Assembly (NCBI GenBank): GCA_016934035.1
Contig: JAFGTP010000011.1
Location: 60,486 to 124,485, forward strand
DNA from: Fidelibacterota bacterium
GTDB taxonomy: Bacteria; Fidelibacterota; UBA2242; JAFGTP01
Length of the DNA: 64,000 nucleotides
Direction: 5' to 3'
In this document: positions 22,301-57,914 of the stretch, in pieces
Position numbering within the stretch: the stretch's first letter is position 1
Layout of the letters: every line of letters starts with the position of its first letter
Translations under genes and position numbers: made by a program
Notes under the pieces: model-generated
What the model was told of the DNA's origin: nothing
The model's database searches: none
What the model saw: only the letters and a program-made list of their open reading frames with translations

Positions 22301-22825
22301 ACACGCATCATTGCCGCAACAAACCGCAATCTTGAAGATGAAGTGAAAAAGGGACAATTTAGAGAGGACCTCTATTACAGGCTCAATGTCTTTCCGATCA
22401 ATATTCCGCCTTTGCGGGAAAGGATGGAAGATGTGCCCCTGCTCGTTCAGCATTTTATTGATAAATATGCTGGGAAATTCAATAAAACCATTACCAAAAT
22501 TCCGCAGAAAACCATCACTGCGCTGATGTCCTATTCCTGGCCCGGCAATATTCGTGAATTGGAAAATATCGTACAGCGGGCTATCATTATTAGCCGAGAC
22601 GACATACTGGAACTGGGTGATTGGTTTAAATCCAATCAACCCAATCGTGAAAACGATGATGAAAATATATTTATTTCTCTGGAAGAGATCCAAAAGCGCC
22701 ATATTGAAAGAATATTGGAATTTACCAATGGAAAAGTCAGCGGGGAAAACGGGGCTGCGGAAATTTTAAAAATTAACCCGAAAACTCTATTTAGCAGGAT
22801 GAAAAAATTAAATATAAATAACTAA
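19340..22825 (+). CDS. Membrane-anchored one-component sigma-54-dependent transcriptional activator with a periplasmic beta-propeller (two-component-regulator-propeller repeats)/Y_Y_Y sensor, then TM helix, coiled coil, AAA+ sigma-54 interaction domain and Fis-type HTH
   Basis: N-terminal signal/anchor. Repeated …LWFGTDDGL/…LLIGT/…IWIGT propeller repeats. Y_Y_Y-like segment (NLKPGQYTFHIKVANND). TM helix FWFQFIVISLIAGLAFLF. The AAA+ domain has Walker A ILILGESGTGKD, ELFGHEKGAFTSA (GAFTGA-type) and R-finger motifs. C-terminal HTH. No HisKA/HATPase or receiver segment is recognisable. Confidence 0.75.
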   Translation: MKWYVMKKWGNLIFIGVAILNFAFSKEQPLHLIPLDFNRAIHCIYQDSNYYLWFGTDDGLYRYNGKDYVAYKIDPYQKNSISDDNITALYENGSRDLLIGTKFGGINKFNSSTENFLSFQNDLMSRVSIHAICNFQNEILFGIDSGLFRLKSENSELSYQAVLTGYTITDILSVDDHCLMVATENNGFFHYDNFEKEGSEKDHFLSNVGVNFLLKVNKNIILISTRQGLYYYNLSAKSLKSIEHKGIVNLSSVDKNAITMDHLGNIWIGLGYELHLISTSDDFNSIDIQSFELDVDNQFSKGINALYFDHSGVLWINLKGKGLYKYFPLQKFLHFNIEEGLMSNMIFSVIENNSHSILLGTHHGLFVYDLEDHLVERIPGTEELNFQVITALYKDSYQNLWCGTNNGLYKFGSSGDLVHYKHSSKELSSISSDFVSSIVGDPLNVGDLWIGTSDGLNRYRKEYDNFIHYFHDQKDEHSIAGNNISHLYFSQKKDLWIGTENEGLSRLNWAEMNKFDPKFVNYGDDITQKESISDTKITYISESNDRIWIGTENGGLNSIDTLNNFNHYLETKGLLDNHILSILSTQDDFLWIATRDGISKFDTRNRVFKNYYFKDGIKKGEFINKSACITKNGKIILGSKAGFTFFHPSQIVSNINPAVPQVAGVYLFNQKIKNEDFKGQGEIIKLKYNQNVISFEICALHYVSPLENIIDYYLEGVDESWGRCRNFEYLTYSNLKPGQYTFHIKVANNDNIWNENEKSLKITITAPFWRTFWFQFIVISLIAGLAFLFIKQRLNEIEKKKFHLEKQIGDKIKINEELNKALAEVEQLKIKLENENTYLKKEIEVSGNSNYKEIVTNSKKMNHILAQVDIASGADPTILILGESGTGKDLLAHAIHKSSNRSKEPFIKVDCAALPPNLIESELFGHEKGAFTSANMRKIGRFELANGGTIFLDEIGELPIKVQQKLLRVLQSGEFERLGNSVTLRTNTRIIAATNRNLEDEVKKGQFREDLYYRLNVFPINIPPLRERMEDVPLLVQHFIDKYAGKFNKTITKIPQKTITALMSYSWPGNIRELENIVQRAIIISRDDILELGDWFKSNQPNRENDDENIFISLEEIQKRHIERILEFTNGKVSGENGAAEILKINPKTLFSRMKKLNINN

Positions 22826-22842
22826 CTATTTAAAAATCAGGA

Positions 22843-23622
22843 TTGGGTATGGTATCTGCAAAAAAAATTATCCGCATAATGGATAAATACAAGCTGGAGA
22901 AATTGTTGCTGTCACCACAGCATCACAATATTGAAAATGGGTCCTATGACTGGTTACTGGGCCTTTTCCCTGATATGGATCCACTGAAGATGAAATTAAA
23001 AATTGATTCCATATTTAAAAGTCAGAAAGTCAATTCAAATTTTGATATGAAAAACCAGGAGTTCATCAATGCTTGTTGTCTTGAAAATAACAGGCTTAAA
23101 TTAATCTATACAATTGATATTGGTAATGATGATATTATAAGAAAATTACAATCAGAATTTGGAAAATCGCCATTTTCTGCCTTGAAAATAAATAATTTGT
23201 TTTCTTCTCTGGACCGGAATAATCAAAATCTTTTCAGGGTAATTAATTTCTGTCGCATCAATGAAATGCCGCTACTGCTCTATGCCTATAAAAAAGCTGA
23301 CTGTGAAATTATCCGCAATCTTGCGGCTGAAAACCAATCCAACACCTTTATGATAGCCAGCATGAGCGGATTGGAATTTTTTGAACTTTATCGGGATTTG
23401 CCCGTGAACCTATTCTGTGAAATAAATAATTTAAACCTTGTTTCTGATTACAGGTTACTAAAAGCCCTGAATATATTTGGTCCCGGTCATTTGGTCTTTA
23501 GTTTTGAGGCCATCAATGAAGATAATCTCAGACACTCTATCATCAGAATCTGCAATCTGGCTGTTCCGGAAACTGTAAAAAGAAGAATTCTGGCGTTGAA
23601 TATTGAGACCTTGTTGAATTAA
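22843..23622 (+). CDS. Hypothetical cytoplasmic protein
   Basis: ORF of 259 aa starting 17 nt after the activator gene. No recognisable motifs. Confidence 0.35.
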   Translation: MGMVSAKKIIRIMDKYKLEKLLLSPQHHNIENGSYDWLLGLFPDMDPLKMKLKIDSIFKSQKVNSNFDMKNQEFINACCLENNRLKLIYTIDIGNDDIIRKLQSEFGKSPFSALKINNLFSSLDRNNQNLFRVINFCRINEMPLLLYAYKKADCEIIRNLAAENQSNTFMIASMSGLEFFELYRDLPVNLFCEINNLNLVSDYRLLKALNIFGPGHLVFSFEAINEDNLRHSIIRICNLAVPETVKRRILALNIETLLN

Positions 23623-23625: not shown

Positions 23626-23645
23626 TTCTGAAATATCAGAAATAT
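23626..23645. promoter_or_regulatory. Perfect inverted repeat ATTTCTGA-AATA-TCAGAAAT (candidate transcription-factor operator or upstream activating sequence)
   Basis: Read directly. The same unit (TTCTGAAAT) recurs at 24326-24344 and many times in 29146-29299. Confidence 0.35.
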
Positions 23646-23777
23646 CTATAATATCCTAAAACAGTAACAATAATTTCCTGTAAATACTTTAAGAAATTAG
23701 TAATTTTTTTTAATTCCTTAAAAAAAATACGTCGGAAAATGAATTTCTCTTAGGGTTTTGAGGTCAAACAGAAATTT

Positions 23778-23865
23778 TTGGCATTTGAATTGTTAATAAC
23801 TCTATCACGTACCATACTAATCCACAGAAAAAGGAAGATGCACCCCGCACTTCCTTTTTCTTTTT
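23778..23865 (+). promoter_or_regulatory. Module A: sigma-54-like -24/-12 element (TTGGCAT-N5-TTGTT), conserved box GTACCATACTAATCC, and terminator-like hairpin plus T-tract. Candidate small RNA gene or attenuator
   Basis: TTGGCAT lies at 23778-23784 and TTGTT at 23790-23794. The box is at 23809-23823. Hairpin GAAAAAGGAAG/CTTCCTTTTT spans 23827-23859 and is followed by CTTTTT. A near-identical module lies at 28845-28932. Confidence 0.3.
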
Positions 23866-24187: not shown

Positions 24188-24468
24188 ATTAAAAATGAAA
24201 TTCCATGTTACGAGTTATTCCTCGTGGCAATTCATACACACTTTTTCCAATATGTAATCCGGGATAATACATAGTTAAATAAAGCACCTTGTTCCAATCT
24301 TTTTTTGAAAAGGCAAACGATTAAATCCGAAATTTCAGAAAAAACCTAAATATCAGATAGTTCACTGCCTTATTTAATTGTTTTAATTTGATTGAATATA
24401 TTAGTAATTAACTGATTAATAGTAAATTATCATTTTATTTTGGGACCTTGTTTTAGAATATTGATCTT

Positions 24469-24523
24469 TTGGTACTCAAATTGGATGAGTAGAAATCGGA
24501 TGATAAGGGATTAATGTAAGGGG
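24469..24523 (+). promoter_or_regulatory. Proximal promoter/leader of SusC-like gene A: TTGGTAC-N5-TTGGA followed by conserved leader box GGATTAATGTAAGGGG
   Basis: The same architecture lies upstream of the second SusC-like gene (29382-29426). A strong RBS AAAGGAGGAAGGT sits before the ATG at 24584. Confidence 0.3.
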
Positions 24524-24583
24524 ACCCACCAATCACACCGTTTTACATTAATCACAAGTAAATAAAACATAAAGGAGGAAGGT

Positions 24584-27484
24584 ATGGCGAAATACTTGAT
24601 TTCGTTATTTCTTGTCCTGGTTCTATTCTGTCCATTAATTGCCCAGGATAGAATTTCAGGAACAGTGATCGATGATGTCACAGATGAACCGCTTGTGGCA
24701 GCAAATGTATTGATAAAGGGAACATCTGTGGGCACAGCCACGGATGAAGAAGGTCGGTTCTTTTTAAATTACAGCAACAATGAGGGGTTTACGTTGCAGG
24801 TATTCTATATGGGATACAAAATGAAAGAAGTTGTCTTTGAGCCGGGATCTGGTCTGGCTAACATTTTAGTTAGAATGCAGGAAGATGTGTTTAAAGGACA
24901 GGAAGTTGTGGTCACAGGCATTGCTTCTCAAATATCACGGGAGATAGCACCAGTCTCTGTAGGTTCGGTTGATGCAACAAAACTGACGGATTTAAACGCC
25001 TACTCGGATATTGCCCAATTGCTCAACGGGAAAATTTCCGGTACTAAAATCACATCTTCCAGTGGAAATGTGGGCGGGGGATATCGCTTTGATATTCGTT
25101 CCGGTGGCGGTCTCAACGGAGATGGTCAGCCCGTTATCTATGTAGACGGCATTCGTATTGACAATTCAGAGATTGAAACCCGTTACAGCAAAGGGGGACA
25201 GGAAATCAGCATGATGGCTTCTCTTAATCCTTCAGAAATTGCAAATATTGAAATTCTGAAAGGTCCGGCTGCTGCAGCGACCTATGGAACGGACGGTTCT
25301 AATGGAGTTGTCCTCATTACAACCAAAAAGGGACAACTGGTCCAGGGCGGAAAAGGATATTCTATCAACTATAATTATAAATTTGGTACCAATTCCCAAT
25401 CCTATCAATACACCAAAGATGATGTTGTTTCCTACAAGGCCGCCAATTCTGTTTTCAAAGATGGTGATTTTGTGGGTCATGACCTCAGTATTTCCGGTGG
25501 TAATAAAGCAACAAAATACTTTTTTACCATGGGTATCCAGGATGAAGAAGGGATTATGGTTAACAATTTTCATAATCGTAAAAATATGCGTCTGAATGTT
25601 GACGCTGTGGCCAGTGAACAATTAAACCTGTCCGCAACCATTGCCATGAACCAGTCAGAACTGGCCCGTCCGGAAAATGATGATAATATTTATGGATGGG
25701 GTGGAAATACACTTTTAAGGCCCACACCCTGGGGTTGGCTGGACAGCATTGAAATTGCGGCGGCTGAAGAAAATATTGACATTAAAAAAATGTCCGGTAG
25801 TTTCAAGGCAACTTACAGGCCCTTCAAAAATTTTTCAATCAATGGATCCATTGGAGCGGAACATTCAAATATGAACCATTATTCCTATTACCCGCCATGG
25901 GGAGATTATCTCTATACCAATGGTTCTAAACAACTGACAGACCGATTCAATACACAGTTTACCTACACTTGGTATGCCGGATATAAATACAATATTCTGG
26001 AAGGCTTTACCGGAAACACCAAAGTTGGCGGCCAGTTATTCGATCAGGAACTGAGAAGAAATTATTTGGCCATTGATTCATTGTCATCAGATAAACTGAA
26101 AGATATTGGTTCTGCAAACGGTGAAGATTTTCTGGACGATTATGGTGAAAACTATGCGACCTTTCGAACTGCAGGGTTATTTTTGGATAATGCATTTAAT
26201 TTTCAGGATAAATTGTTTATAGGGGCCAGTATCCGGCAGGATTTTGCCAGTTCTTTATCGCCCAAAGCACCGAATATCATTTACCCCCAGGCTAATGTTG
26301 CAATCAGACTGGACCGGTTTGGATTGACACCCGGCCTGATTGATATGGCAAAAATCAGATTAGCCTACGGTGAAACAGGGCAGTTGCCGGGATCAACCCA
26401 GTCAACTCCATTGATATGGGCAGCTGAACAGTCGGGATATGGTGGTGGGCTAACGGTATCGGAAATTGGAAACAACAAACTGGAACCGGAAAGAATCAAG
26501 GAATTGGAAATCGGACTGGATTTGGGGCTTTTCAACCGCTACAAAATCGAAGCTTCTTATGCCAAAATGAACGCTGAAAATTCAATCGTGGGTAGAAATC
26601 TGGCGCCTTCAACCGGACTGGTGGTCACAGCTTTTCCTGATAATATCGGAAAAATTGAAGGACACTCCTTTGAGCTTGGCCTGGATGCAGTACTGGTCAA
26701 TGAAAAAAATGTTCGTCTTGAGATCAACCAGAGAAATTCATGGCAGAAAGATGAGATTACGATAATGCCGGAACCATCCTATACCAATGACATCCAGGTT
26801 CTGATGGAAGGTAAATCCAGATGGACGTTCTTTGATGAGAAAGTAGATTCCATCATGTATGATGAAAATGGAAAGTTTCTGGACTACCGTATATCCACAG
26901 ATAAGAAAGACCTGGGAGATGCCATACCCGATTATTTTGGTTCTTTGTCGATGAACCTTACCTTGTTCCGACATGTGAATATCTATGGATTATTGGATTG
27001 GCAGACTGGTGTCAAAGTCTATAATTTTACCAAGGTCTATCAAACTTTTTTTGGCAACAATGTGGCCTATAATGAAGCCACTGCCCTGGTGGATTCTCTT
27101 AATGCCATTGATGGGTATGATTATCATTCCGGAAAATACAAAAAAGCGGTTAAAGATTATGTGAAATACGATGCGGTTTTTTATGGTTCAAGGGCCGCTT
27201 TTATTGAAAATGGCGATTACCTGAAAATCAGAGAATTGAGCATCAGTTATGACGCCTCCCATTTACTGAAAAAATATCTGCCCAATGCAGGGATTGAAAG
27301 ACTGGCTTTTTCTTTTACAGCAAATAATCTCATTACATGGACGAAATATTCCGGTGCTGATCCCGAGGTCAATTCCACCGGCTCAACTGTAGATGGCGGT
27401 GAGACCTATGTTACCAGAAATGAAGATTTTTTGACAATGCAGCATCCTAAGAGGATTGCATTTTCAATACAATTGGGTTTATAG
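24584..27484 (+). CDS. SusC/RagA-like TonB-dependent outer-membrane receptor
   Basis: Signal peptide. Carboxypeptidase-regulatory-like N-domain (ISGTVIDDVTDEPLVAANVLIKGTSVGTATDEEGRF). Plug region and a long beta-barrel ending in an aromatic-rich C-terminus. A SusD-like gene follows. Confidence 0.85.
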   Translation: MAKYLISLFLVLVLFCPLIAQDRISGTVIDDVTDEPLVAANVLIKGTSVGTATDEEGRFFLNYSNNEGFTLQVFYMGYKMKEVVFEPGSGLANILVRMQEDVFKGQEVVVTGIASQISREIAPVSVGSVDATKLTDLNAYSDIAQLLNGKISGTKITSSSGNVGGGYRFDIRSGGGLNGDGQPVIYVDGIRIDNSEIETRYSKGGQEISMMASLNPSEIANIEILKGPAAAATYGTDGSNGVVLITTKKGQLVQGGKGYSINYNYKFGTNSQSYQYTKDDVVSYKAANSVFKDGDFVGHDLSISGGNKATKYFFTMGIQDEEGIMVNNFHNRKNMRLNVDAVASEQLNLSATIAMNQSELARPENDDNIYGWGGNTLLRPTPWGWLDSIEIAAAEENIDIKKMSGSFKATYRPFKNFSINGSIGAEHSNMNHYSYYPPWGDYLYTNGSKQLTDRFNTQFTYTWYAGYKYNILEGFTGNTKVGGQLFDQELRRNYLAIDSLSSDKLKDIGSANGEDFLDDYGENYATFRTAGLFLDNAFNFQDKLFIGASIRQDFASSLSPKAPNIIYPQANVAIRLDRFGLTPGLIDMAKIRLAYGETGQLPGSTQSTPLIWAAEQSGYGGGLTVSEIGNNKLEPERIKELEIGLDLGLFNRYKIEASYAKMNAENSIVGRNLAPSTGLVVTAFPDNIGKIEGHSFELGLDAVLVNEKNVRLEINQRNSWQKDEITIMPEPSYTNDIQVLMEGKSRWTFFDEKVDSIMYDENGKFLDYRISTDKKDLGDAIPDYFGSLSMNLTLFRHVNIYGLLDWQTGVKVYNFTKVYQTFFGNNVAYNEATALVDSLNAIDGYDYHSGKYKKAVKDYVKYDAVFYGSRAAFIENGDYLKIRELSISYDASHLLKKYLPNAGIERLAFSFTANNLITWTKYSGADPEVNSTGSTVDGGETYVTRNEDFLTMQHPKRIAFSIQLGL

Positions 27485-27493
27485 GAGGTTTAT

Positions 27494-28741
27494 ATGAAAA
27501 ATATTAAAATAATTTTATTGCCGGTTTTACTCTTCTCAATAGTCATGGTGTCCTGTGAAGATTGGGTCCAGGATTTACCTCCCCGCGAGGATATTATTGA
27601 AGATGATGTTCTGGTAGATGAAGCCGATATCGATTTACTGGTTCTGGGTATCAAGACCAATTTTTCTTCAACTATTGAGCGGTCCTCGCTCTATTCGGAA
27701 ATATTGGGAGATGCTGTAATTAATGGTCGCTATGTTTGTCAGGATGCCACTTATGATGTCTGGCGCGAACTTGAAGAAGGTGATATTCAATTAAACAATG
27801 CGGCGGTTGACGGGCTTTCCACAAATATTGGAGAAATGTGGCACTGTGCCACCAATCTCGTCGATCGTATCACCAATCGAATGGGAGAAATCAGTGAAGA
27901 AAAGAAAAATTATGGGCTTTTCAACGGCCATCTGTTTGAAGGCATTGCTTATGAGATTTATGCCAATTATTATGGTCTGAATGAAGAAGAAGGCGGTGGA
28001 TGTATCAACTCCGGGCCTTTTACCAATTCAGGGCAGCTCTTTGATATGGCCCTGAATAAATATGAAGAGGCCCTCAATTTTACCAGTGATCCCTGGGAAA
28101 TCCGGGTGGTGAATTCACTGATGGCCAGGTGTTATTTATATAAAGGTGATTATTCCGGTTCCAGGATATGTGGAGCACTGGGTTTGACAGAAGGTGACCA
28201 GCCCTTTGAGGCGCTTTATGTTCAGTCCTCGGATAATTATTGGTGGCAGCAAGCCAGCATTGGACTTCGTGTCCAGGTCATTGTGGATAACAGGTTTGCT
28301 CAGTATATCGATGAGGATCCCAACGAAGCCAACCGCATTCCGCTTTATGAATTGCCTGACGAATTAAATGTGTCAGAAGATACTGCGGCGGTTTATTGGA
28401 CCCAGGGTAAGTATATTGAGGCAGATGCGCCTATCGCTTTTATCACCTGGCAGGAGACCTATCTGATCCTGGCTGAACTGGCTGCAATAAGAGGACAATC
28501 GGGCAATGCCCTTGATGCTGTCAATGCAGTTCGTGGCAGTCATGGAATTGATCCGGTGTCCGAAGTCAATCGTGATTTGATCATCACAGAGCGGGATAAA
28601 GAATTATTTACCACAGGTGCAAGGCTGATCGATCAGCGTCGTTTTGATCTATGGCATTTGCCCTCCGGTACATGGAAGTATCTCCCAATCACGGAAAGTG
28701 AACGAAATGCCAATGATAATTTGCCCAATGTCGGTGAATAA
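27494..28741 (+). CDS. SusD/RagB-like lipoprotein
   Basis: Lipobox VMVSC. Sits immediately after the SusC-like gene. C-terminus …RRFDLWHLPSGTWKYLPITESERNANDNLPNVGE matches the SusD-family C-terminal LPIP-x-SE-x-NPNL-type tail. Confidence 0.7.
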   Translation: MKNIKIILLPVLLFSIVMVSCEDWVQDLPPREDIIEDDVLVDEADIDLLVLGIKTNFSSTIERSSLYSEILGDAVINGRYVCQDATYDVWRELEEGDIQLNNAAVDGLSTNIGEMWHCATNLVDRITNRMGEISEEKKNYGLFNGHLFEGIAYEIYANYYGLNEEEGGGCINSGPFTNSGQLFDMALNKYEEALNFTSDPWEIRVVNSLMARCYLYKGDYSGSRICGALGLTEGDQPFEALYVQSSDNYWWQQASIGLRVQVIVDNRFAQYIDEDPNEANRIPLYELPDELNVSEDTAAVYWTQGKYIEADAPIAFITWQETYLILAELAAIRGQSGNALDAVNAVRGSHGIDPVSEVNRDLIITERDKELFTTGARLIDQRRFDLWHLPSGTWKYLPITESERNANDNLPNVGE

Positions 28742-28758
28742 CTAATGAAATTAACCAT

Positions 28759-28800
28759 AAAGTCCTCTTTGAATTGCAAAGGGGACTTTTACTTTTCTTA
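28759..28800 (+). terminator. Rho-independent terminator after the SusD-like gene
   Basis: AAAGTCCTCTTTG-aatt-CAAAGGGGACTTT (one mismatch) followed by TTACTTTTCTT. Confidence 0.5.
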
Positions 28801-28844
28801 ACGATATCACAATGCAGAACAGAAAAAACATCCGAATCATACTA

Positions 28845-28932
28845 TTGGCATTCATATTGTTATGCTAAAAGATGTACCATACTAATCCTAGGAAAAGGAA
28901 AGTCTCTCTCAAATAAACTTTCCTTTTTCTTT
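28845..28932 (+). promoter_or_regulatory. Module B: second copy of the sigma-54-like element (TTGGCAT-N5-TTGTT), GTACCATACTAATCC box, and hairpin plus T-tract
   Basis: TTGGCAT lies at 28845-28851 and TTGTT at 28857-28861. The box is at 28874-28888. Hairpin AAAAGGAAAGT/ACTTTCCTTTT is followed by the same CTTTTTCTTTTT tail as module A. The stems differ by compensatory changes. Confidence 0.3.
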
Positions 28933-29145
28933 TTCCAGATAAAATTCCCGATATCAAATCAGTGCTATCCCCCGACAGAGTAAAAATGGCGACAGGAAAG
29001 GCTTTTTTTCAAACTGTTAAATCTGTCTTCAGAGTCTTATAAAAAAATGGTGTATGGAATGATGTTCGAATTTTTATTTAAAAATCTGATATTTACATTA
29101 ATTATTTAATGTATTTGTTGAATTTTTTTTAATAAAAATAGTTTA

Positions 29146-29299
29146 ATATCAGAAAAGTATGATTTAGTTGAGGGTTTGATCGGTTTTTTTGAAGTATTTA
29201 AGAAATTCTGAAAAAAAATTCGGAAATTTCGGAAATTTCGGAAAGTTCTGAAATATCCTATATTTAATCCTTTTTGCATTATTCTGAAATATCAGAAAA
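29146..29299. promoter_or_regulatory. Array of 9-bp TTC(T/G)GAAA(T/G) units: five direct repeats (29206-29254), an inverted repeat ATTCTGAAAT-ATCAGAAAA (29281-29299) and isolated half-sites (29146-29157). Candidate activator binding region
   Basis: Read directly: TTCTGAAAA, TTCGGAAAT x2, TTCGGAAAG, TTCTGAAAT, and a palindrome built from the same unit. It lies about 85 to 240 bp upstream of the proximal sigma-54-like element at 29382. Confidence 0.4.
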
Positions 29300-29381
29300 C
29301 TAATTTTTAACATAAGTATTATCAATATTTTATCCAAATAAATATCGGTGTGATTGAAAAAAAATAATTCAAAATGGGCTC

Positions 29382-29426
29382 TTGGTACATCTGTTGAGAA
29401 ATACCTATCAGGATTAGTGTAAGGGG
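29382..29426 (+). promoter_or_regulatory. Proximal promoter/leader of SusC-like gene B: TTGGTAC-N5-TTGAG followed by GGATTAGTGTAAGGGG box
   Basis: Same architecture as 24469-24523. RBS AAAAGGAGGAAAGT sits before the ATG at 29493. Confidence 0.3.
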
Positions 29427-29492
29427 GTGTCAAAAAACACATCTAAAACACAATCATACAAAGTGCTAACGAGGTTAAAAAAGGAGGAAAGT

Positions 29493-32400
29493 ATGACAAG
29501 AAATGTCATTTTATGGTTATTGACCATCCTGTTACCATTTGTTCTATTCGCTGGAACAACTGGTAAAATTTCAGGAATAGTAACCGACAAGGAAACCGGT
29601 GAACCCTTACCCGGTGTTAATATAGTGGTTACCGGTGGCGGTCTGAATACCGGAGCGGCAACTAACATCACCGGTTATTATTCCATTATTAATGTTCCTG
29701 TAGGTGATTATGAAATGAAAGTATCCTACATGGGAAAAAAGACCATTGTAATTAAAAACCTACATGTATCCCTGGATTTGACGACAGAAATCAATCTTGA
29801 GATGGAAAACAGTACATTGGATATGGAAGAAGTTCTGGTTACTGCCGAACGCAAAATTATCAGAAAAGATGAAACCAATACCAATGTTATCAAAACTGCT
29901 GAAGATATTGAAAATCTTCCCGTAAGAGGTATGCAGGAAATTGCAGCCGCCACAGCAGGTGTTGTGAAAACAGCGAATTCCAACAACATGAATGTTCGTG
30001 GCGGACGTGCAGCAGAAACTGCAGTGTATATAGACGGCGTACTGGTTAATGATCCCTATAACAGTGCCGTCAGACTGTATTTGCCAAACGAAGCAATTGA
30101 AGAAATGAGTGTCCAGACCGGTGGTTTCAATGCCGAATACGGTGATGCCATGTCGGGTATTGTTGCTTTGACCACCAATGTTGGGACAAAAGAATACAAG
30201 GCCTCTATATCTTTTGATACGGACCAGTTTCTGAGTGCTGAGGAAAAATTTCTGGGGACCTATTCCTATGGCCATAATGAGTATGTTGCCACCTTGAGTG
30301 GTCCTATTATTCCTGGAAAAAATCATACATTCTTTTTCAGTGGAACCCGTCAATACCAGGCTGACTGGACGCCTTCTTATGGCTGGTCAGAAAATCCCTA
30401 TCGTCTGGAGGAAATGGATTATCATCAGACTTTTATGTATGACAATGAATTTGACAGCATTCGTATTGCTTATAATGATGAAATGGAAAAAATGGATACA
30501 ACCCTGATAACCTATACCGAAAGAGATACACTTGATCTCGGTAACCATCAATACAAGTTTAATGCAAGAATACCTGGCAATTTCAACAGTGTCTGGTCAT
30601 GGAACGGAAAATTTAAATTACAATTGACCGAAGGGATTTCACTGAAAACCGGTTTTGCCAGAACTGACAGGGAATTTGCTGCAGATCCTTATTATGATGA
30701 TGCGATGCACCGGCAATATTTCTTCAATCAGGACCATGGTCCTGTTCAGTCCAATCAGACAACATCTCTCAATACCACGCTGACTCATACTGTTTCCAAT
30801 AATACTTTTTATGATTTAAGATTCAAATATTTTGATACAGAGCGGAAATGGTACGATAAGGAATTTGGTGATGATCTGGAAAAATATGGTAGTGTTGAAG
30901 ACCAGCCCTTTCCGGATCAAAATATATTCTACGTCGGTAGTGAAGAACTCCGGTCGCTTTATGAAGAGCGGTATGACCGTGGAACTTCAACATTTAAAGG
31001 TACTAGGTTCAACGGTTCTCTGGAACCGGACTTTTTTGCGCCCGGTGTTCCTTATGACGATTATTTTAAAAACAGAACAACCTATTGGGGAATCGATTTT
31101 GATCTGACCCACCAATTGGGAAAACATCATACCTTTAAAACCGGGTTTGAATATAAATATCACACCATGCGTGAATTTCGTATGGTAAGTCCCTACAATT
31201 ACGTCGGAGATTATGATACTGATATTGAAAGATATCAGGGTGCGGACCTGCGATTCTACGGTTATGATGTTGAGGGTAAAGAAGTGGATGACGGGCCAAA
31301 TTTTCTGGATGATGTCGAAAGAGATGAATCCGGACAGCCCACATCTGGTTATGACAAACAGGAACCCTATCATCCGATTATTATGAGTGGTTATTTGCAG
31401 GATAAAATAGAGTATGAAAATATTATCATCAATATGGGACTGAGATATGACCGGATTGATCCCAATGCCTGGATGTTCAAACAAATTGATAAACAGGTTG
31501 ATGCAGATGGCAATTACATCAATGGCACCGGTATGTTTGGTGGCAATGAACAATTTGATGCTGTAGATACAAAACCCTCAGAAGTATATGACTATCTCAG
31601 TCCTCGTCTGGGCGTGTCTTTTCCGATTACCGAAAGTACTGTTTTCCATACACAATATGGTATTTTCTATCAGGCACCTCAGCTCATGGACCTTTATCTG
31701 AGTCCTTTTTATCTGGATACCTATGTATCAGGTGGTGGTTATTTTACTGTGATTGACAATCCAAATTTACGGCCACCCAAAACCACTTCCTATGAATTGG
31801 GTTTCAAACAAATGCTTGGCAATCGCGCTTCGCTGCAGCTGACGACCTTTTTCAAGGAAACTGAAGACCTGGTACTGATATTCCCACATTTGACCGATGC
31901 TACGGAAATCGCTTTTACCGATAATGGTGATTTTGGCACCATCAAAGGTTTTGATGTGATTTTTACTATGAGAAGATTCAATAATCTTTCACTGAATATG
32001 AATTATGAGTTCCAGGTAGCCAGAGGGACCGGATCCAGTACCAATTCCAATTTTGATATCGCCTGGCAGGATGGTTCCCGGGACGGAAACTTTCCAAAGT
32101 TTGCAATGCCCCTGGATTTTGAGCAGCGACATCGCGGCAGTATCATAATGGATTACCGATACGGGCAGGATGATGCACCAATCGGTTTTCTGAATAATGC
32201 CGGTATCAATATGATGTTTACTTTTAATTCAGGTAATCCCTATACTTTGGCGGTTGTTGCCAACACCAATCCTTTTGGCGGCCGGAATGACAATGATGGT
32301 ATTTCAGAAAAACCCTTTTCAGCAGTCGGTGCGGAGCGGACTCCCTGGATGTATCAGACAGACCTGAAAGTAGATAAAAGAATGACTTTCGGAAAAATAA

Positions 32401-32633
32401 AACTGACGGCCTACTGTACAATATTGAATGTTTTTAATAAAGAAAATGTTAAAAATGTTTACATCACCACTGGATCGCCCAATGATACGGGTTACCTGGG
32501 TACCAATCCCGGTAAAGTATACTGGAATAGTTTAACTGAAGATCAGCAAAAACAATTCAAGATGAGAGAATGGGATTATAGCCATTATGCAGCACCAAGA
32601 CAGATTCGTCTTGGATTGCGGCTGGAACTATAA
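29493..32633 (+). CDS. SusC-like TonB-dependent outer-membrane receptor (no SusD partner)
   Basis: Signal peptide. Carboxypeptidase-regulatory-like N-domain (ISGIVTDKETGEPLPGVNIVV…GYYSI). Plug and a long barrel. Start taken at the ATG at 29493, which has a strong RBS; the ORF-track start at 29427 lacks one. Confidence 0.85.
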   Translation: MTRNVILWLLTILLPFVLFAGTTGKISGIVTDKETGEPLPGVNIVVTGGGLNTGAATNITGYYSIINVPVGDYEMKVSYMGKKTIVIKNLHVSLDLTTEINLEMENSTLDMEEVLVTAERKIIRKDETNTNVIKTAEDIENLPVRGMQEIAAATAGVVKTANSNNMNVRGGRAAETAVYIDGVLVNDPYNSAVRLYLPNEAIEEMSVQTGGFNAEYGDAMSGIVALTTNVGTKEYKASISFDTDQFLSAEEKFLGTYSYGHNEYVATLSGPIIPGKNHTFFFSGTRQYQADWTPSYGWSENPYRLEEMDYHQTFMYDNEFDSIRIAYNDEMEKMDTTLITYTERDTLDLGNHQYKFNARIPGNFNSVWSWNGKFKLQLTEGISLKTGFARTDREFAADPYYDDAMHRQYFFNQDHGPVQSNQTTSLNTTLTHTVSNNTFYDLRFKYFDTERKWYDKEFGDDLEKYGSVEDQPFPDQNIFYVGSEELRSLYEERYDRGTSTFKGTRFNGSLEPDFFAPGVPYDDYFKNRTTYWGIDFDLTHQLGKHHTFKTGFEYKYHTMREFRMVSPYNYVGDYDTDIERYQGADLRFYGYDVEGKEVDDGPNFLDDVERDESGQPTSGYDKQEPYHPIIMSGYLQDKIEYENIIINMGLRYDRIDPNAWMFKQIDKQVDADGNYINGTGMFGGNEQFDAVDTKPSEVYDYLSPRLGVSFPITESTVFHTQYGIFYQAPQLMDLYLSPFYLDTYVSGGGYFTVIDNPNLRPPKTTSYELGFKQMLGNRASLQLTTFFKETEDLVLIFPHLTDATEIAFTDNGDFGTIKGFDVIFTMRRFNNLSLNMNYEFQVARGTGSSTNSNFDIAWQDGSRDGNFPKFAMPLDFEQRHRGSIIMDYRYGQDDAPIGFLNNAGINMMFTFNSGNPYTLAVVANTNPFGGRNDNDGISEKPFSAVGAERTPWMYQTDLKVDKRMTFGKIKLTAYCTILNVFNKENVKNVYITTGSPNDTGYLGTNPGKVYWNSLTEDQQKQFKMREWDYSHYAAPRQIRLGLRLEL

Positions 32634-32666
32634 ATTGATTTCAATTTTTGAATTGGAGGAAAATAT

Positions 32667-35600
32667 ATGAGAAAAATTATAATATATACCTTGACAATGG
32701 TTTTTCTTCTGTCTGCATTTTTGATGGCTGAAGAAAATCAAAAGAAAACCAATGGCCCACTGGCGAAAACCGCCATGACCAGTGATATTTGGATGGACGC
32801 CAACAGGTTAAATGGTTTTATGAGAAATAATGGAATCTGGTTTTATGATATTCCAGCTCATACCTGGGGCCTGGAATGGCCGAAAGGCTCGGGTCTGAGC
32901 CCTATGTATGCCTGCGGACACTGGCTGGCTGCCCGTGTTGACGGCGAGGTCCGGGTAGGAGGAATTGTCCATGATGCCACCGAATATCAGCCGGGTGAAA
33001 TTCTTTCCCCCGGAATTGCTGCAAATCCCAATGATCCTGCCTACAGGTGGTATGTTCTCAGGCCCTCAGGTGTGGGTGACTGGAACAGCTGGCCGGTAGA
33101 GCAGGGAGCGCCGGTTGATGCAGAAGGGAATCCGATGATGATCGGTGATTATTCCGCCTTTTGTGTCTGGAATGATCTTGCGCCTCATACCCGTTTTGGA
33201 ACTGGAAAATTGAATGCTCAAATCCAGCAATTTGTCTGGGCCTTTAACCGGGCTGATGCACTGGGAGACATGATGTTTTCTAAATGGACTATTGTCAATA
33301 AAAGTGGCACCGATTGGAAAGACACATATTTTACGATTTGGACTGATCCTGATGTTGGAAATGCCACCGATGATTTTGTTGGTTGCGATACGGTTCTGGG
33401 AATCGGTTATTGCTACAATGCGACCAATGATGACCAAAATTATGGTGCTGCACCACCAGCAGTGGGCATTGATTTTTTCCAGGGACCCATTATTGATGAA
33501 GAGGGATCCCAGGTTATTTTGACCGATGGAACAGTCCTTGAAAATAAGAAAAAACTGAAAATGACATCCTTTGTCTATTTCAATAACAATGATAACCCGC
33601 AAAACGGAACACCCAATACGGGCCAGGATGCCTACAATTACATGAGGGCCATCTGGAAAGACGGTACATCGGTAACCGAAGGTGGCGTCGGTACTAATGC
33701 CAATAATCCGCCAGCCTCCTTTATGTTCAGCGGTGATCCGGTGACTGGCACAGGCTGGAATGACTCCAATGAAGATGACAGACGTTTCATGATGACTACC
33801 GGTCCCTTTAACATGACCTATTGGGAAGCCAATAATCCAAACCGCGATTTGAATATGAATGGTATCGCTGATTTCGGTGAACCCGGAGTCCAGGCTATCG
33901 TTGCTGGTTTTATTGTTGCCCGAGGAACCGATAATCTCAATTCAGTCGCCAAATTGAAACAGGTCGATGCTCTGGCGCAGCTGGCCTATGATGTAGATTT
34001 CAAACTGGCCAAAAACCCGATGTCTCCTGAAGTTGAAATCAGTGAATTGTCCAATGAAATTCTTTTGAACTGGACTGGCAATTCAGAATTCAATGAAGAT
34101 GGAACATTGTATGAATCCGCTGATCCGATCGTAGCCAAAGCCTTTGGCGATACTGTAATTATGGATAATATGGAAAAAGTCATTGCTGATTCAACCTATA
34201 ATTTCCAGGGTTATTCAGTTTACCAGTACGCTGATGCCGGTGGTGCCTCTCCGGTTCTCATTGACCACTGGGAAGTCGAAGATGCTTCAGAAGCTGCTCC
34301 CTATACCGGACCTAGAATGATTCGCATTACTCAGAATTCTCACGGTCAGGTAGGAAATGTCGGCGATTTACTGATTAACGGTAAGCAATATTATTTTGGT
34401 GTCGTCGCTCAAGGTTATTGCGAATTTGGTGCACCCATGATATTGGAAAGTGCTCCAACGATTGTCTCCGTCATTCCCCAGCAAAGGCTTGGACAGAGGA
34501 CTTATTCTGTATTCGGTGATTCTATCACAGTGACCCATATGAGAATTGACACAACTCAACCAACCAGTCAGGGCAATGTTGCCGCTTTGGTTGTTGATCC
34601 GACCAAAGTGACCGGCCACGATTACAAAGTTGGTTTTTATAACGATTCACAAGATAATCCGGTCTGGTATTTATATGATGAAACTGTAGGTGATACCCTT
34701 TTGAACAAGCAGGAAAATCAGAGAAATGACGAAGCCTACAATGTCACTGATGGAATGGTTGTCAAAGTCTCCGGTGCAGCTCCCAGTATTATTAGCGTTT
34801 CTCAGGTAGACACGGACAATTGGGATGAAGTCATTGACGCAACCCTGATTGGCAGTCTCAATGCAAAAGCGGATTATTCCGTTGGAAAACCTGCTTTTCT
34901 GGTAGCTGCTGCAGGGGCAGACGAAGGGGATGACGCAACCCAATTTACACAATGGGACTGGAAAGGTAATACAACTCCCAATGATATCGTCATTGAATTT
35001 GTTGAACCTGAAGAAGGACAGCTTGTTCTCAATGGCTGGGCTGACGCTCCAAATTCTGCCGATGGCAACTGGTTTCTCAACGGATGGATTGAATCGGATA
35101 CGGTGGGTGGTGAACAGACCATCCATGATACCCATGGCAGATTGCCTTTTAGAGTATGGATGATTACACCCTCTGGTGAAAGGACCCAGATCATTGCAGC
35201 TGTGCTGGAAGATAATGATAATTGGTATTGGGATCAGCAGCAGCCTGGAATTTTTGTTGATGGCGCTCTCAGTGGATGGGAAAGATTGTATTTATTAAAT
35301 TATCCCTACAATGAAACGGAACTGACCAGTGACGGCGGTGATAATGTACTCAACAATTTATTCTGGGGATCGCTCTATCCTGCTGCCCACTCAATCGGCC
35401 GCTTAATTTTTTCCATGTACTATGATCTATGGTCACCGGGAACAGGCGGACTTTGGGGAAAACCACCGGCAGCCGGTACTGTTATTCGTTGGAATTCTGC
35501 AAAACCCAATAGTGAAAATGATTATTACACCTTTACAGCACCAAAGGCTGCAACAGATTCCACCAGTCATCAGAAAGATGATATAAAAAATATCCAAGTG

Positions 35601-35900
35601 GTTCCCAATCCATATTATGGTTATCATTCCGGTGAAATGAATATTTTCCAGCGATGGGTGCAATTTACCAATCTGCCCGAAGAATGCACTATCAGAATAT
35701 TCGATCTTGCCGGCAACCAGATCAAGAAAATTCAAAAGAATGATCCAGCAACAACATTAGCGCAATGGGACCTTAGCAATGAATACGGCCTTCCGGTCGC
35801 CAGCGGTATTTATGTCTACCATGTAGATATTCCGAAGGTTGGCGAAAAAGTCGGCAAACTTGCGATCTTTGCTCCTAATGAACGGATGGATACTTACTAA
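32667..35900 (+). CDS. Large secreted protein of unknown function with T9SS C-terminal sorting domain
   Basis: Signal peptide. About 1000 aa with no motif I can assign. The last about 90 aa (IQVVPNPYYG…CTIRIFDLAGNQIKKI…ASGIYVYHVDI…KLAIF) match the T9SS type-A CTD pattern. Confidence 0.55.
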   Translation: MRKIIIYTLTMVFLLSAFLMAEENQKKTNGPLAKTAMTSDIWMDANRLNGFMRNNGIWFYDIPAHTWGLEWPKGSGLSPMYACGHWLAARVDGEVRVGGIVHDATEYQPGEILSPGIAANPNDPAYRWYVLRPSGVGDWNSWPVEQGAPVDAEGNPMMIGDYSAFCVWNDLAPHTRFGTGKLNAQIQQFVWAFNRADALGDMMFSKWTIVNKSGTDWKDTYFTIWTDPDVGNATDDFVGCDTVLGIGYCYNATNDDQNYGAAPPAVGIDFFQGPIIDEEGSQVILTDGTVLENKKKLKMTSFVYFNNNDNPQNGTPNTGQDAYNYMRAIWKDGTSVTEGGVGTNANNPPASFMFSGDPVTGTGWNDSNEDDRRFMMTTGPFNMTYWEANNPNRDLNMNGIADFGEPGVQAIVAGFIVARGTDNLNSVAKLKQVDALAQLAYDVDFKLAKNPMSPEVEISELSNEILLNWTGNSEFNEDGTLYESADPIVAKAFGDTVIMDNMEKVIADSTYNFQGYSVYQYADAGGASPVLIDHWEVEDASEAAPYTGPRMIRITQNSHGQVGNVGDLLINGKQYYFGVVAQGYCEFGAPMILESAPTIVSVIPQQRLGQRTYSVFGDSITVTHMRIDTTQPTSQGNVAALVVDPTKVTGHDYKVGFYNDSQDNPVWYLYDETVGDTLLNKQENQRNDEAYNVTDGMVVKVSGAAPSIISVSQVDTDNWDEVIDATLIGSLNAKADYSVGKPAFLVAAAGADEGDDATQFTQWDWKGNTTPNDIVIEFVEPEEGQLVLNGWADAPNSADGNWFLNGWIESDTVGGEQTIHDTHGRLPFRVWMITPSGERTQIIAAVLEDNDNWYWDQQQPGIFVDGALSGWERLYLLNYPYNETELTSDGGDNVLNNLFWGSLYPAAHSIGRLIFSMYYDLWSPGTGGLWGKPPAAGTVIRWNSAKPNSENDYYTFTAPKAATDSTSHQKDDIKNIQVVPNPYYGYHSGEMNIFQRWVQFTNLPEECTIRIFDLAGNQIKKIQKNDPATTLAQWDLSNEYGLPVASGIYVYHVDIPKVGEKVGKLAIFAPNERMDTY

Positions 35901-35941
35901 CGGTCAGGTTATCTGATAACGTAATTATGGAGGAAAAAGTT

Positions 35942-36976
35942 ATGAATAAAAATATATTAAAAATCACAAGCCTATTAATTTTGATACTGTTCAGCCAGGT
36001 GGTTTTTGCCAGTGGAAGCCGTGTTGGTACTGCTGCAGCTCCGGAATTGTTGATTCCCATGGGAGCCCGAAATGTGTCCCTGGGCTGTTCGGATATTGCC
36101 AACGTTACCGGCACCGATGCCATTTACTGGAACCCGGCGGGACTCTCTTACATCAAACAGGCCGAAGCAACCTTCAGTTATTTGAAGTATTTTGCTGATA
36201 TGAATGTCGCTTACATTGCTACCGGAATCAAGATGGGACAATTGGGTGCTGTCGGTATCAGTATTCAGTCACTGAATATCGGAAAAATTAAAGTGACAAC
36301 CATTGAAGCGCCTGAAGGCACAGGACAGGAAATTACTCCTGACTACCTTACTGCCGGATTGACTTATTCCAAAAAATTGACCAATAAAGTCGCATTTGGA
36401 AGCAATGCTAAAATCATCAGTGAAAATATTGGAAATATGTCAGCCACAGCTTTTGCCATTGACCTGGGACTGCAATACCACACCGAATTTGGACTTGATT
36501 TCGGTATTACCATGAAAAATATCGGTACTGATATGAAATTTGACGGACCGGAAATTGAATTCAACTCTGATATTCCTTTTGCAAATCCCAATGCCACAAC
36601 CCGCAAAACCAAACTGGACATGGCCTCCAACGAATTGCCCACCAGCATGAATATGGGACTGGCTTATACCCGAAAATTCAGTGATGCTGTAGCGGCTTCC
36701 TGCTATGGTCAATACAGTAAAAATACACTGGACATGGACAGAATGAATTTGGGTGGTGAAGTCAATCTGAACAACCTGTTGTTCCTGAGAGCAGGCTATA
36801 TTTATAATATCTATCCTGAAGATTGGGAGTGGGACAAGGACGCCCAGTTCAATTTTAGTTACGGCCTCGGATTAAATTTGATGGTTTCCGGGACCAAAGT
36901 CTATTTTGATTATGCATTCAGACCGATGGAATTGTTTGATGCGAATCAATACTTCTCCATTAGCGTAGGTTTTTAA
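35942..36976 (+). CDS. PorV/PorQ-family outer-membrane beta-barrel protein (T9SS-associated)
   Basis: Signal peptide. N-terminal GSRVGTAAAPELLIPMGARNVSLGCSDIANVTGTDAIYWNPAGLS resembles the PorV-family signature (GT-AA-FL-IG-GARA-AMGGA…DASA-YWNPAGL). C-terminal aromatic. ATG at 35942 with RBS GGAGGA. Confidence 0.55.
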   Translation: MNKNILKITSLLILILFSQVVFASGSRVGTAAAPELLIPMGARNVSLGCSDIANVTGTDAIYWNPAGLSYIKQAEATFSYLKYFADMNVAYIATGIKMGQLGAVGISIQSLNIGKIKVTTIEAPEGTGQEITPDYLTAGLTYSKKLTNKVAFGSNAKIISENIGNMSATAFAIDLGLQYHTEFGLDFGITMKNIGTDMKFDGPEIEFNSDIPFANPNATTRKTKLDMASNELPTSMNMGLAYTRKFSDAVAASCYGQYSKNTLDMDRMNLGGEVNLNNLLFLRAGYIYNIYPEDWEWDKDAQFNFSYGLGLNLMVSGTKVYFDYAFRPMELFDANQYFSISVGF

Positions 36977-46729: not shown

Positions 46730-46815
46730 TCGCTGAAAACTTTATAAAAAAGAGACAGGGAAGTTTGCCTTTTGGGTGAATTTCCCTCTCTTTATATAAA
46801 ACCAATGAGGAAAAA

Positions 46816-47904
46816 ATGAAAAAAATAATTTTCATGATCATTTTGTTTATTATTATGATACAATTTTGCAAAAAAACTGAAATTGTCGGATTTACGATCA
46901 CGGCATGGGAAGAAACCGATGAAATGGCAGCCGGTATCCACGATGATGCTGCTGATGATCCAGCCATCTGGATAAATGATGAGGACCGGTCCCAAAGTAT
47001 TGTTTTCGGAACCAATAAAATTGATCAGGGGGGTGTCTATGCTTTTGATCTGAAAGGCAATAAACTGACCTATTATAAAATTGGAGCCATCAACAATATT
47101 GATGTTCGCTATGGACTGACCAATGGATTGGACACCATTGATTTTCTGGGAGGTTCCAACAGAAGTGATACAACCTTGACTTTTATGAAAATTGACTCCA
47201 GGGGCGTATTAACGCCAACAGGTAAAATTAAATCAAAAGTCGACGAAGTATACGGGTTTTGCCTGCATCATGACAAAAAGAGCAATGAATTCTATGCTTT
47301 TGTCGTCAGTAGTTCTGGGCAACTGGAGCAATGGGAATTGGGACTATCTGAAGATTTGATGATTACCGGTGAACTGGTCCGCCAAATCGAGGTTGGCTCA
47401 AAATGCGAGGGCTTGGTAGCCGATGATGAACTGAATATACTCTATGTTGGCGAAGAAGAAAATTGTATCTGGAAATACAGTACCGATGCGACAACGGGAG
47501 AAAGCCGGGAAAAACTGGTCATGTCGGGTGCGGAAAATTCAAAAATCGCCTATGATATTGAAGGACTGGGTCTATATTACATGCCCAATGGTGAGGGGTA
47601 CCTGATTGCTTCCAGCCAGGGAAATTTTTCTTATGCCCTTTTTGATCGAAAAAAGGGTCATTACCTGACAAGTTTTTCTGTTGTGGACGGTACAATCGAT
47701 GGCGTCCAGGAAACCGATGGCCTGGAAATACTCAACCTGTCATTAAATGAAGAATTTGATTCAGGTTTGCTGGTAGTCCAGGACGGATACAATTACAACA
47801 AGGATAAAAAATATTCACAGAATTTTAAATACATCCGATGGCAGGATATCGTAAATTCAAGTGACGTTGAATTAAAAATAAATAATGAATATGATATCCG
47901 TTAA
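46816..47904 (+). CDS. Beta-propeller phytase (3-phytase)
   Basis: Strong collinear similarity to Bacillus PhyC-type phytases: DDAADDPAIWI…GTNK, VYGFCLHH, EGLVADDE…LYVGEE…IWKY, DIEGLGLYY…GYLIASSQGNFSYALFDR, ETDGLEI, VVQDG…QNFKYIRW. Confidence 0.85.
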   Translation: MKKIIFMIILFIIMIQFCKKTEIVGFTITAWEETDEMAAGIHDDAADDPAIWINDEDRSQSIVFGTNKIDQGGVYAFDLKGNKLTYYKIGAINNIDVRYGLTNGLDTIDFLGGSNRSDTTLTFMKIDSRGVLTPTGKIKSKVDEVYGFCLHHDKKSNEFYAFVVSSSGQLEQWELGLSEDLMITGELVRQIEVGSKCEGLVADDELNILYVGEEENCIWKYSTDATTGESREKLVMSGAENSKIAYDIEGLGLYYMPNGEGYLIASSQGNFSYALFDRKKGHYLTSFSVVDGTIDGVQETDGLEILNLSLNEEFDSGLLVVQDGYNYNKDKKYSQNFKYIRWQDIVNSSDVELKINNEYDIR

Positions 47905-47941
47905 TTGATATTATTTTGTACTTCCCTCCTTCCTTACTCAC

Positions 47942-47977
47942 AAAAGGATGCATTTTTATTGCATCCTTTTTTTATTT
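47942..47977 (+). terminator. Rho-independent terminator after phytase gene
   Basis: AAAAGGATGCA-tttttat-TGCATCCTTTT followed by TTTTATTT. Confidence 0.55.
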
Positions 47978-48017
47978 CCTGGAAAATTATAAATTTTCTT
48001 TAACAGAAGGAGTAATT

Positions 48018-48755: not shown

Positions 48756-48760
48756 AAATA

Positions 48761-54426: not shown

Positions 54427-57914
<3,488 letters not shown>

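Follow-up and report, generated by a model that had tools for sequence, protein, structure and literature searches.

NtrC activates glnAp2 of enteric bacteria from clustered dimer sites about 100–150 bp upstream of a -24/-12 promoter, with oligomer assembly on these sites and formation of a DNA loop. Upstream of norVW in E. coli, three adjacent sites scaffold the AAA+ ring of NorR, a one-component sensor that works without a phosphorelay. LuxO (at the Qrr genes of Vibrio) and GlrR (at GlmY) are sigma-54 activators that bind palindromes upstream of the -24/-12 promoters of trans-acting small RNAs (sRNAs). The canonical sigma-54 promoter has the register GG-N10-GC, as in TGGCAC-N5-TTGC. Here we analysed an array of 9-bp repeats, followed by a palindrome, at positions 29206–29297 of a 64-kb stretch of DNA (the whole stretch is referred to as the window) from a marine bacterium of the Marinimicrobia (Fidelibacterota, SAR406), an abundant and uncultured lineage. 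Annotated proteins identical to those encoded here belong to a Candidatus Marinimicrobia metagenome-assembled genome. The array precedes an operon that begins with a TonB-dependent receptor gene, and comparison with related genomes makes it likely that it is an upstream activating sequence, or enhancer, from which a sigma-54-dependent promoter is switched on. Full-text literature searches returned nothing on gene regulation or sigma-54 in Marinimicrobia, nor on sigma-54 control of SusC-type loci.

The locus resembles glnAp2 in its clustered inverted-repeat sites, its putative -24/-12-type promoter and its candidate activator, an AAA+ protein with a Fis-type helix-turn-helix (HTH) domain. It differs from glnAp2 in the motif, in the candidate activator being a membrane-spanning one-component protein rather than a response regulator, in a -12 element without the C, and in site spacings of 18 and 36 bp, both of them multiples of 9 bp. 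With norVW it shares three putative activator sites upstream of a sigma-54-type promoter and a one-component sensor. NorR, however, is cytoplasmic, senses through a GAF domain and recognizes GT-N7-AC, whereas the sensor here is predicted to be periplasmic and the motif is TTCTGA-N4-TCAGAA.

We read the sequence directly between positions 28800 and 29700. The first unit of the array, TTCTGAAAA (29206–29214, plus strand), starts 177 bp upstream of the TGG of the promoter, and the step from it to the next unit is 13 bp, not 9 bp. Four plus-strand 9-bp units then follow in phase (29219–29254): TTCGGAAAT at 29219, TTCGGAAAT again at 29228, TTCGGAAAG at 29237 and TTCTGAAAT at 29246–29254. A preliminary description of this DNA had spoken of five tandem direct repeats; the dense array is indeed there, as four in-phase units and one offset unit. 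The inverted repeat that it had also listed is present as TTCTGA-AATA-TCAGAA at 29282–29297; this is a consensus palindrome, TTCTGAAATATCAGAA, which we call site C and which starts 101 bp upstream of the TGG. Positions 29282 and 23626 carry the same 17-mer, TTCTGAAATATCAGAAA. Together the motifs lie 84–237 bp upstream of the promoter element TGGTACATCTGTTGA (29383–29397), in agreement with the 85–240 bp given earlier.

The motif is strongly enriched in the window. Tandem Repeats Finder ranked 29215–29254 (period 9, 4.4 copies, score 59) at the top of the 24 arrays that it detected there. The 9-mer TTCKGAAAK occurs 17 times in the window against 6.2±2.2 times in shuffled sequences, and none of 100 shuffles reached 17, contrary to the random scatter at similar density that the preliminary description had named as fatal to its proposal. 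Five of the 17 occurrences fall within 72 bp (29219–29290). The 16-mer TTCTGAAATATCAGAA with up to three mismatches is found 17 times where 1.97 are expected, and 11 of these matches are located in three intergenic regions, at 23626, 24325 and 29219–29297. A position weight matrix (PWM) trained solely on sites from genomes other than the window gave nine matches of at least 14 bits in the window, including those at 29219, 29228, 29246, 29282, 23626 and 24325; site C reached 24.5 bits. Of the half-sites that had been placed at 29146–29157, we see a single isolated right half-site, AATATCAGAAAA (29145–29156, plus strand). The corresponding 16-mer at 29139–29154 scores 9.5 bits, the half-site is not conserved in orthologues, and a function for it is doubtful.

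We then compared the upstream regions of five related Marinimicrobia genomes, namely the window and those labelled L128, L004, L019 and L127, counting offsets from the TGG of the conserved TTGGTACA..T.TTGA element. Orthologues had been traced to contigs for the candidate regulator discussed below (69%, 57% and 54% identity) and for the receptor (82% and 59%); a search of metagenome contigs with a 23-base pattern gave two contigs, both of which were also found by protein look-ups. Site C is at -100/-101 in all five genomes. Site B, which is TTCTGAAATATCCTAT in the window (29246–29261, starting 137 bp upstream of the TGG), is at -136/-137 in four of the five, the window, L128, L004 and L019 (TTCTGAAATATCCTAT, TTCTGAAATATCCTAG, TTCTTAAATATCCGAT). 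The distal site A, TTCGGAAATTTCGGAA in the window (29228–29243, starting 155 bp upstream of the TGG), is found in three, the others being L128 (TTCTGAAAAATCAGAA) and L127 (TTCTGAAATATAAGAC), both at -154. The offsets thus agree within 1 bp between genomes and fall in the range of about 80–200 bp upstream that activator sites of this kind occupy. The alignment contains conserved islands, namely the A/B block, site C (TTC..AAATATCAGAA, invariant), the TTGGTACA..T.TTGA.AA element, a leader box GGATTAGTG.A.GGGG and the Shine-Dalgarno sequence, and the DNA separating them shows no conservation. Sites of 16 bp held at fixed offsets within otherwise unconserved DNA support the original suggestion of an upstream activating sequence. 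As a negative control we used L131, another member of the Marinimicrobia, in which a receptor operon with 60% identity lies beside clpP and has the promoter TTGACA-N17-TTACAT; its upstream region has neither the motif nor a -24/-12 element.

The unit conserved across the genomes is the 16-bp inverted repeat TTCTGA-N4-TCAGAA and not the 9-bp tandem repeat. The 9-bp unit had been regarded as the half-site of the palindrome at 23626, and while the two are related as proposed, it is the longer inverted repeat that evolution has kept. The centres of its half-sites are 10 bp, or one helical turn, apart, as expected for a dimeric HTH protein. Apart from its centre base the core TTCnGAA reads the same on both strands, and because of this palindromic core any two neighbouring 9-bp units add up to a full 16-bp site: nucleotides 1–6 of one unit (TTCnGA) and nucleotides 2–7 of the next (TCnGAA) make inverted half-sites with centres 10 bp apart. 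Every neighbouring pair of units accordingly forms a 16-bp pseudo-palindrome, in overlapping registers that start at 29219, 29228, 29237 and 29246 (-164, -155, -146 and -137) and score 17.5, 17.5, 11.5 and 18.6 bits, respectively; the full site formed by an adjacent TTCGGAAAT pair matches the consensus at 13 of 16 positions. Non-overlapping pairs are 18 bp apart, like sites A and B in the relatives. Since the spacing is 18 bp between A and B and 36 bp between B and C, the 9-bp periodicity is ancestral.

The TTCGGAAAT array itself is confined to the window. L128 has the single palindrome TTCTGAAAAATCAGAA in its place, as well as a counterpart of the offset unit TTCTGAAAA at about the same position, and all four relatives have either single 16-bp sites or degenerate sequence there. 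The tandem array thus appears to be a recent, lineage-specific, slippage-type expansion and homogenization of the distal site A. It is possible, although on balance rather unlikely, that this expansion is neutral, with sites B, C and the ancestral A functional and the three-unit TTCGGAAAT tandem a product of slipped-strand synthesis that adds nothing to regulation. The absence of the tandem from L128, L004, L019 and L127, the near identity of the three units, which suggests a recent origin, and their departures from the consensus at three positions would all fit such an event. On the other hand, a full-scoring register has been kept exactly at -155, together with the 18-bp spacing to site B, and with the PWM from other genomes the units score 17.5 bits, above the 16.4 bits of the site of the SusC/SusD operon described below.

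The promoter of the receptor operon is the putative -24/-12 element TTGGTACATCTGTTGA (29382–29397, plus strand), which keeps GG-N10-G and has an A instead of the C at -12. This element had been called sigma-54-like in the preliminary description. Its conservation in five genomes, where nothing else between site C and the leader is conserved, and the lack of any sigma-70-like promoter on the plus strand at 28700–29520 support that assignment, with the correction that the -12 element in TGGTACATCTGTTGA reads TTGA rather than TTGC. A sigma-70 reading of the conserved element was rejected, as no acceptable pair of -35 and -10 sequences is conserved. Transcription would start at about 29409. Shortly downstream are the conserved leader box GGATTAGTGTAAGGGGG (29411–29427, plus strand) and the Shine-Dalgarno sequence AAGGAGGAA (29482–29490, plus strand), which precedes the ATG at 29493. 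Between the activator sites and the promoter, at 29320–29332 (plus strand), there is an exact match to the IHF consensus, WATCAANNNNTTR (TATCAATATTTTA); L128 has a copy with one mismatch at the same offset, and L004 and L127 have none. Comparison of 13 promoters of three classes from five genomes gave the consensus TTGGYAY-N5-TTG, in which TTGG, the spacing and TTG are invariant, and in nine of the 13 motif sites are found 100–166 bp upstream.

The same arrangement recurs at two other kinds of gene in the window. The SusC/SusD operon (24584–28741) has the sigma-54-type promoter TGGTACTCAAATTGG (24470–24484, plus strand), preceded by putative activator sites ATCCGAAATTTCAGAA at -145 and, weaker, AACCTAAATATCAGAT at -127 (24325–24358). 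The pair is also present in L128, with TTCCGATATTTCAGAA at -145, and the promoter has the pattern TGGTA(C/T)-N5-TTGG in both. The third case is a gene for an sRNA of about 60 nt, which together with its sigma-54-type promoter TGGCATTTGAATTGT occupies 23779–23865 on the plus strand. The palindrome TTCTGAAATATCAGAA at 23626–23641 starts 153 bp upstream of this promoter, with a weak second site 18 bp further on (23644–23659); the corresponding palindrome is at -154 in L001 and at -166 in L005 and L006. We considered whether the palindrome at 23626 is the terminator of the preceding 257-aa open reading frame (ORF) and rejected this, as the stem is 7 bp and A/U-rich, no U tract follows, and the related site B is not palindromic.

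An invariant unpaired seed, GUACCAUACUAAUCC, opens the sRNA, and a strong terminator hairpin (-18.7 kcal/mol, z = -7.4) closes it. A second copy, with promoter TGGCATTCATATTGT, is encoded at 28846–28936 on the plus strand, and further copies were found in L001 (14431–14520), L004 (13512–13600 and 14363–14450), L006 (6665–6750), L128 (9356–9440) and L019 (two copies). The promoter of these genes has the form TTGGCAT-N5-ATTG. In an alignment of seven copies from five genomes, TTGGCATT-N3-ATTG is the sole conserved element upstream, 12–15 nt before the invariant 5′ end of the RNA, and the terminator half is likewise invariant. As with Qrr and GlmY, palindromes thus stand upstream of sigma-54-type promoters of a short sRNA. 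The present RNA, in contrast to those, matches no Rfam family (no match at the gathering score and no credible match at E ≤ 10), and the same sites also precede protein-coding receptor operons.

What protein might bind these sites? The 9-bp repeats are most likely sites for a putative membrane-spanning sigma-54 enhancer-binding protein of 1,156 aa, the gene for which (19355–22825, plus strand) lies 6.5 kb upstream of the array. Its predicted order of domains is a signal sequence or first transmembrane segment, Reg_prop beta-propellers, Y_Y_Y, one internal transmembrane segment at about residues 771–794, AAA+, lid and HTH_8, with Pfam matches to Sigma54_activat (E = 1.2e-69), AAA_lid_14, HTH_8, Reg_prop and Y_Y_Y. 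The C-terminal part matches NtrC1, NifA and ZraR. The sigma-54 contact loop reads GAFTSA instead of the usual GAFTGA, both here and in the 69%-identical orthologue (P0002) only; two other orthologues (P0003 and P0004) have GAFTGA. The N-terminal part matches the sensor of BT4663, a hybrid two-component system (HTCS) protein of Bacteroides thetaiotaomicron (PDB 4a2l, E = 2.5e-63; 3v9f, E = 1.7e-50). The likeness to BT4663 includes the periplasmic twin beta-propeller with YYY domain, the membrane-anchored single polypeptide with a DNA-binding output and the location of its gene beside SusC/SusD-type genes. The regulator is nevertheless not an HTCS, because Pfam detects no kinase (HisKA, HATPase), receiver (REC) or AraC domain in it; its output consists of AAA+ and HTH_8, and its presumed targets are of the -24/-12 type.

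Two observations connect this protein to the motif. Four orthologues that have the motif in common also have one and the same recognition helix in the HTH, INPKTLFSRMKKLNINN, although these proteins are only 54–69% identical overall. In addition, three other lineages (L001–L003, L004 and L005–L007) have the palindrome and the sRNA immediately after the regulator gene. In the L001 lineage this gene and the receptor operons lie on different contigs; the one with the operons, L128, comes from the same three metagenomes, and it has the motif upstream of both. Homologues from Ignavibacteria (L134 and L135; 36–38% identity) have another recognition helix and are not beside receptor genes, which neither supports nor weakens the assignment.

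The alternative is that the motif is bound by another regulator, either the NtrC-type response regulator at 54420–55829, with its kinase partner at 50200–54426, or a repressor or activator outside the window that does not work with sigma-54. The 54420 protein is a sigma-54 activator with a canonical GAFTGA loop, and in the organism of L001 and L128 the receptor genes are not linked to the regulator gene. Both regulators had been named as candidates originally (as 19340–22825 and 54420–55829). Synteny with the palindrome, which holds for orthologues of the 19355–22825 protein in all four lineages where the downstream flank is available, and the invariance of the recognition helix among these orthologues favour the first of them, although this is not proof. 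Furthermore, Pfam (E ≤ 0.001) finds no HTH_8 in the 54420 protein, and its C-terminal sequence is different. We therefore regard another binder as improbable.

Even less probable is that the array is a contingency (phase-variation) repeat, the copy number of which would alter the number and phasing of activator sites and so switch receptor expression between cells. Perfect short tandem repeats upstream of the promoter of an outer-membrane receptor operon do invite such an explanation, and the copy number differs from that of the nearest relatives (59–82% orthologues), this lineage being represented by one assembly. Three to four copies of a 9-bp unit are, however, a short tract for frequent slippage, and an added unit would move the distal registers only, leaving sites B and C in place; we thus consider this very unlikely. 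A chance origin of the array, as a low-complexity repeat in AT-rich intergenic DNA, might be suggested by the 39% G+C of the genome and the 87 one-mismatch variants of the 9-mer in the window, but can practically be dismissed, since no shuffle reached the observed counts and four other genomes have kept both the sequence and its position.

Several findings weigh against the array being a sigma-54 enhancer, or against parts of this proposal. The canonical C at -12 is replaced by A, T or G in all 13 promoters (TTGA, TTGT or TTGG instead of TTGC), that is, in those at 23779, 24470, 28846 and 29383 in the window and in nine from related loci. The Pfam domain of the sigma-54 factor (Sigma54, rpoN) was not found in a scanned subset of 28 window ORFs. 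The TTCGGAAAT units do not match the consensus at its positions 4, 10 and 13, and neighbouring registers overlap by 7 bp, so that at most two of the four could be occupied simultaneously; being absent from every orthologue, these units may contribute nothing to function. The window encodes a second sigma-54 activator (54420–55829), which is another candidate binder. No activator site is present within 400 bp upstream of four of the sRNA promoters (the second copy in the window, L128 and both copies in L004). The sites closest to the second copy in the window are those at 29206–29297, downstream of the sRNA, and it is possible that the receptor enhancer serves this copy, that of L128 and the second copy of L004 from downstream. 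Finally, a strong motif pair is present at 3740–3764 (ATCTGATATTTCGGAA, 20.5 bits, with a weaker site 9 bp upstream), within an acyltransferase gene (2796–4487, minus strand) and with no -24/-12 element nearby. This pair may have arisen by chance or may represent a cryptic site; because it is intragenic and without a promoter, the motif by itself does not define function.

If the array is an enhancer nonetheless, it might work as follows. The unit TTCTGA-N4-TCAGAA would suit a dimer of Fis-type HTH domains, and sites A, B and C, which start about 155, 137 and 101 bp upstream of TTGGTACATCTGTTGA, would probably be bound by the one-component activator with its periplasmic beta-propeller/YYY sensor, sigma-54 AAA+ domain and HTH_8. 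On sensing its ligand, the activator would assemble into an AAA+ ring at the clustered sites; the spacer, which is AT-rich, would loop, and ATP hydrolysis would open the closed complex of sigma-54 polymerase. Transcription would then proceed from about 29409 through the genes of the receptor, a 1,077-aa protein and a PorV-like protein. The tandem array may offer extra registers that overlap one another. The same activator and motif would also serve the SusC/SusD operon (from -145) and the sRNA gene (from -153).

The first gene of the operon behind the array (29493–32633, plus strand) encodes a TonB-dependent receptor with a CarboxypepD_reg domain, and is followed by genes for the 1,077-aa protein, which is without known function, and a protein of the PorV/PorQ family (32667–36976). 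The preliminary description called this receptor SusC-like, which does not hold: it matches neither TIGR04056 nor TIGR04057, falls below the NCBIfam cut-off for SusC/RagA and has no SusD neighbour. Only the receptor at 24584–27484 reaches the cut-off, meeting both models (385 bits against 368), and the next gene is a weak match to SusD. The order after the regulator gene is therefore the 257-aa ORF, the palindrome, the promoter, the sRNA, the SusC/RagA and SusD genes (24584–28741), the second sRNA and the receptor operon. We also considered whether the 257-aa ORF encodes a hidden HTH protein that binds the motif; this was rejected, as nothing in Pfam matches it even at E ≤ 10.

An operon of a receptor, a protein of about 1,050–1,077 aa and a PorV/PorQ-like protein is common in Marinimicrobia, KSB1 and Calditrichia (window 29493–36976; L131 10001–17238; L136 4021–11277). 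In other lineages it sits after clpP and has a sigma-70-like promoter, and the operon in the window looks like a specialized paralogue under the control of an activator. Elsewhere in the window there is a second sensory unit, composed of a Reg_prop/YYY/GAF/PAS histidine kinase (50200–54426) and the NtrC-type response regulator (54420–55829). It adjoins, within the region 43931–55829, genes for a TonB-dependent receptor, a phytase and a protein of the endonuclease/phosphatase family with a sorting tail of the type IX secretion system.

Possible targets of the sRNA were noted alongside this analysis. OmrA and OmrB of enterobacteria are short sRNAs with a conserved 5′ seed that pairs with the translation-initiation regions of mRNAs for TonB-dependent receptors. 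The sRNA described here has a similar type of seed, an unrelated sequence and a sigma-54-type promoter, and regulation by it is predicted. A search of 596 Gb of genome contigs with a 15-mer from the sRNA gave 117 loci, nearly all of them random, with L019, L024, L083 and L090 being relevant. The seed is complementary, at 15 of 15 positions, to the Shine-Dalgarno sequence and start codon of the clpP-linked TonB-dependent receptor gene (AAGGAGGAUUAGUAUGGUAC) at L024 1621–1635 (minus strand) and L083 6968–6982, and both of these metagenome-assembled genomes also carry the sRNA. This suggests that the sRNA may repress the housekeeping paralogue of the receptor. In L024 the 5′ end of the receptor gene is partly duplicated (GGAGGATTAGTATGGTGCGAGGACTTAAAC) some 160 nt ahead of the gene's start codon, after a TGGCGC...TTGA element; this copy might act as a decoy for the sRNA, or might be left over from the process by which the antisense seed came into being. 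The seed also pairs over the ribosome-binding site and AUG of the 257-aa ORF, both in the window (22838–22856, -17.6 kcal/mol) and in L001 (about 13488–13505, -15.3 kcal/mol).

Both receptor leaders in the window (29411–29456 and 24504–24560) open with the box GGAUUA(G/A)UG(U/G), the leaders of L128, L004 and L127 being considered likewise. By pairing with a downstream (A/U)CA(U/C)(U/A)AAUC, the box makes up the 5′ arm of a conserved hairpin close to where the mRNA begins; over 10 nt it is also complementary to the sRNA seed at the 5′ end of the RNA. The sRNA could thus compete with the 3′ arm of the leader hairpin. The pairing of the sRNA with the leader at 29411 has an energy of -15.5 kcal/mol, about twelfth among the plus-strand tiles of the window; because this energy is unexceptional, the case for a link between sRNA and leader is one from conservation only.

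Taken jointly, these elements would make up an undescribed mode of regulating loci of the polysaccharide-utilization type outside Bacteroidota. A membrane-spanning protein that joins a periplasmic glycan sensor of the HTCS type to a sigma-54 AAA+ domain would bind TTCnGAA motifs phased by 9 bp, act on promoters systematically lacking the C at -12, and drive operons of specialized TonB-dependent receptors together with an sRNA with a 5′ seed. The sRNA would silence the housekeeping receptor paralogue and the 257-aa gene, the circuit amounting to a feed-forward loop for receptor swapping. We put this forward tentatively, as a whole it being somewhat less than an even prospect.

The array, as far as sequence comparison can tell, is most likely an enhancer of a familiar kind in an unstudied lineage, its tandem repeats a lineage-specific elaboration of one of three sites. 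The locus offers a testable cis-regulatory code, in which a candidate regulator is combined with a motif, rules for its spacing and a consensus for the promoter, and the PWMs for motif and promoter can be used to map the regulon in metagenome-assembled genomes. The 13 natural promoters with bases other than C at -12 provide material on how strict the GC rule at -12 is outside Proteobacteria. The higher-value lead is the whole circuit, with its fusion of sensor and AAA+ domain, its non-canonical -12 element and its co-regulated sRNA. Uptake loci of the SusC/TonB type could, on this evidence, be wired to sigma-54 through a sensor otherwise known from the HTCS of Bacteroides.

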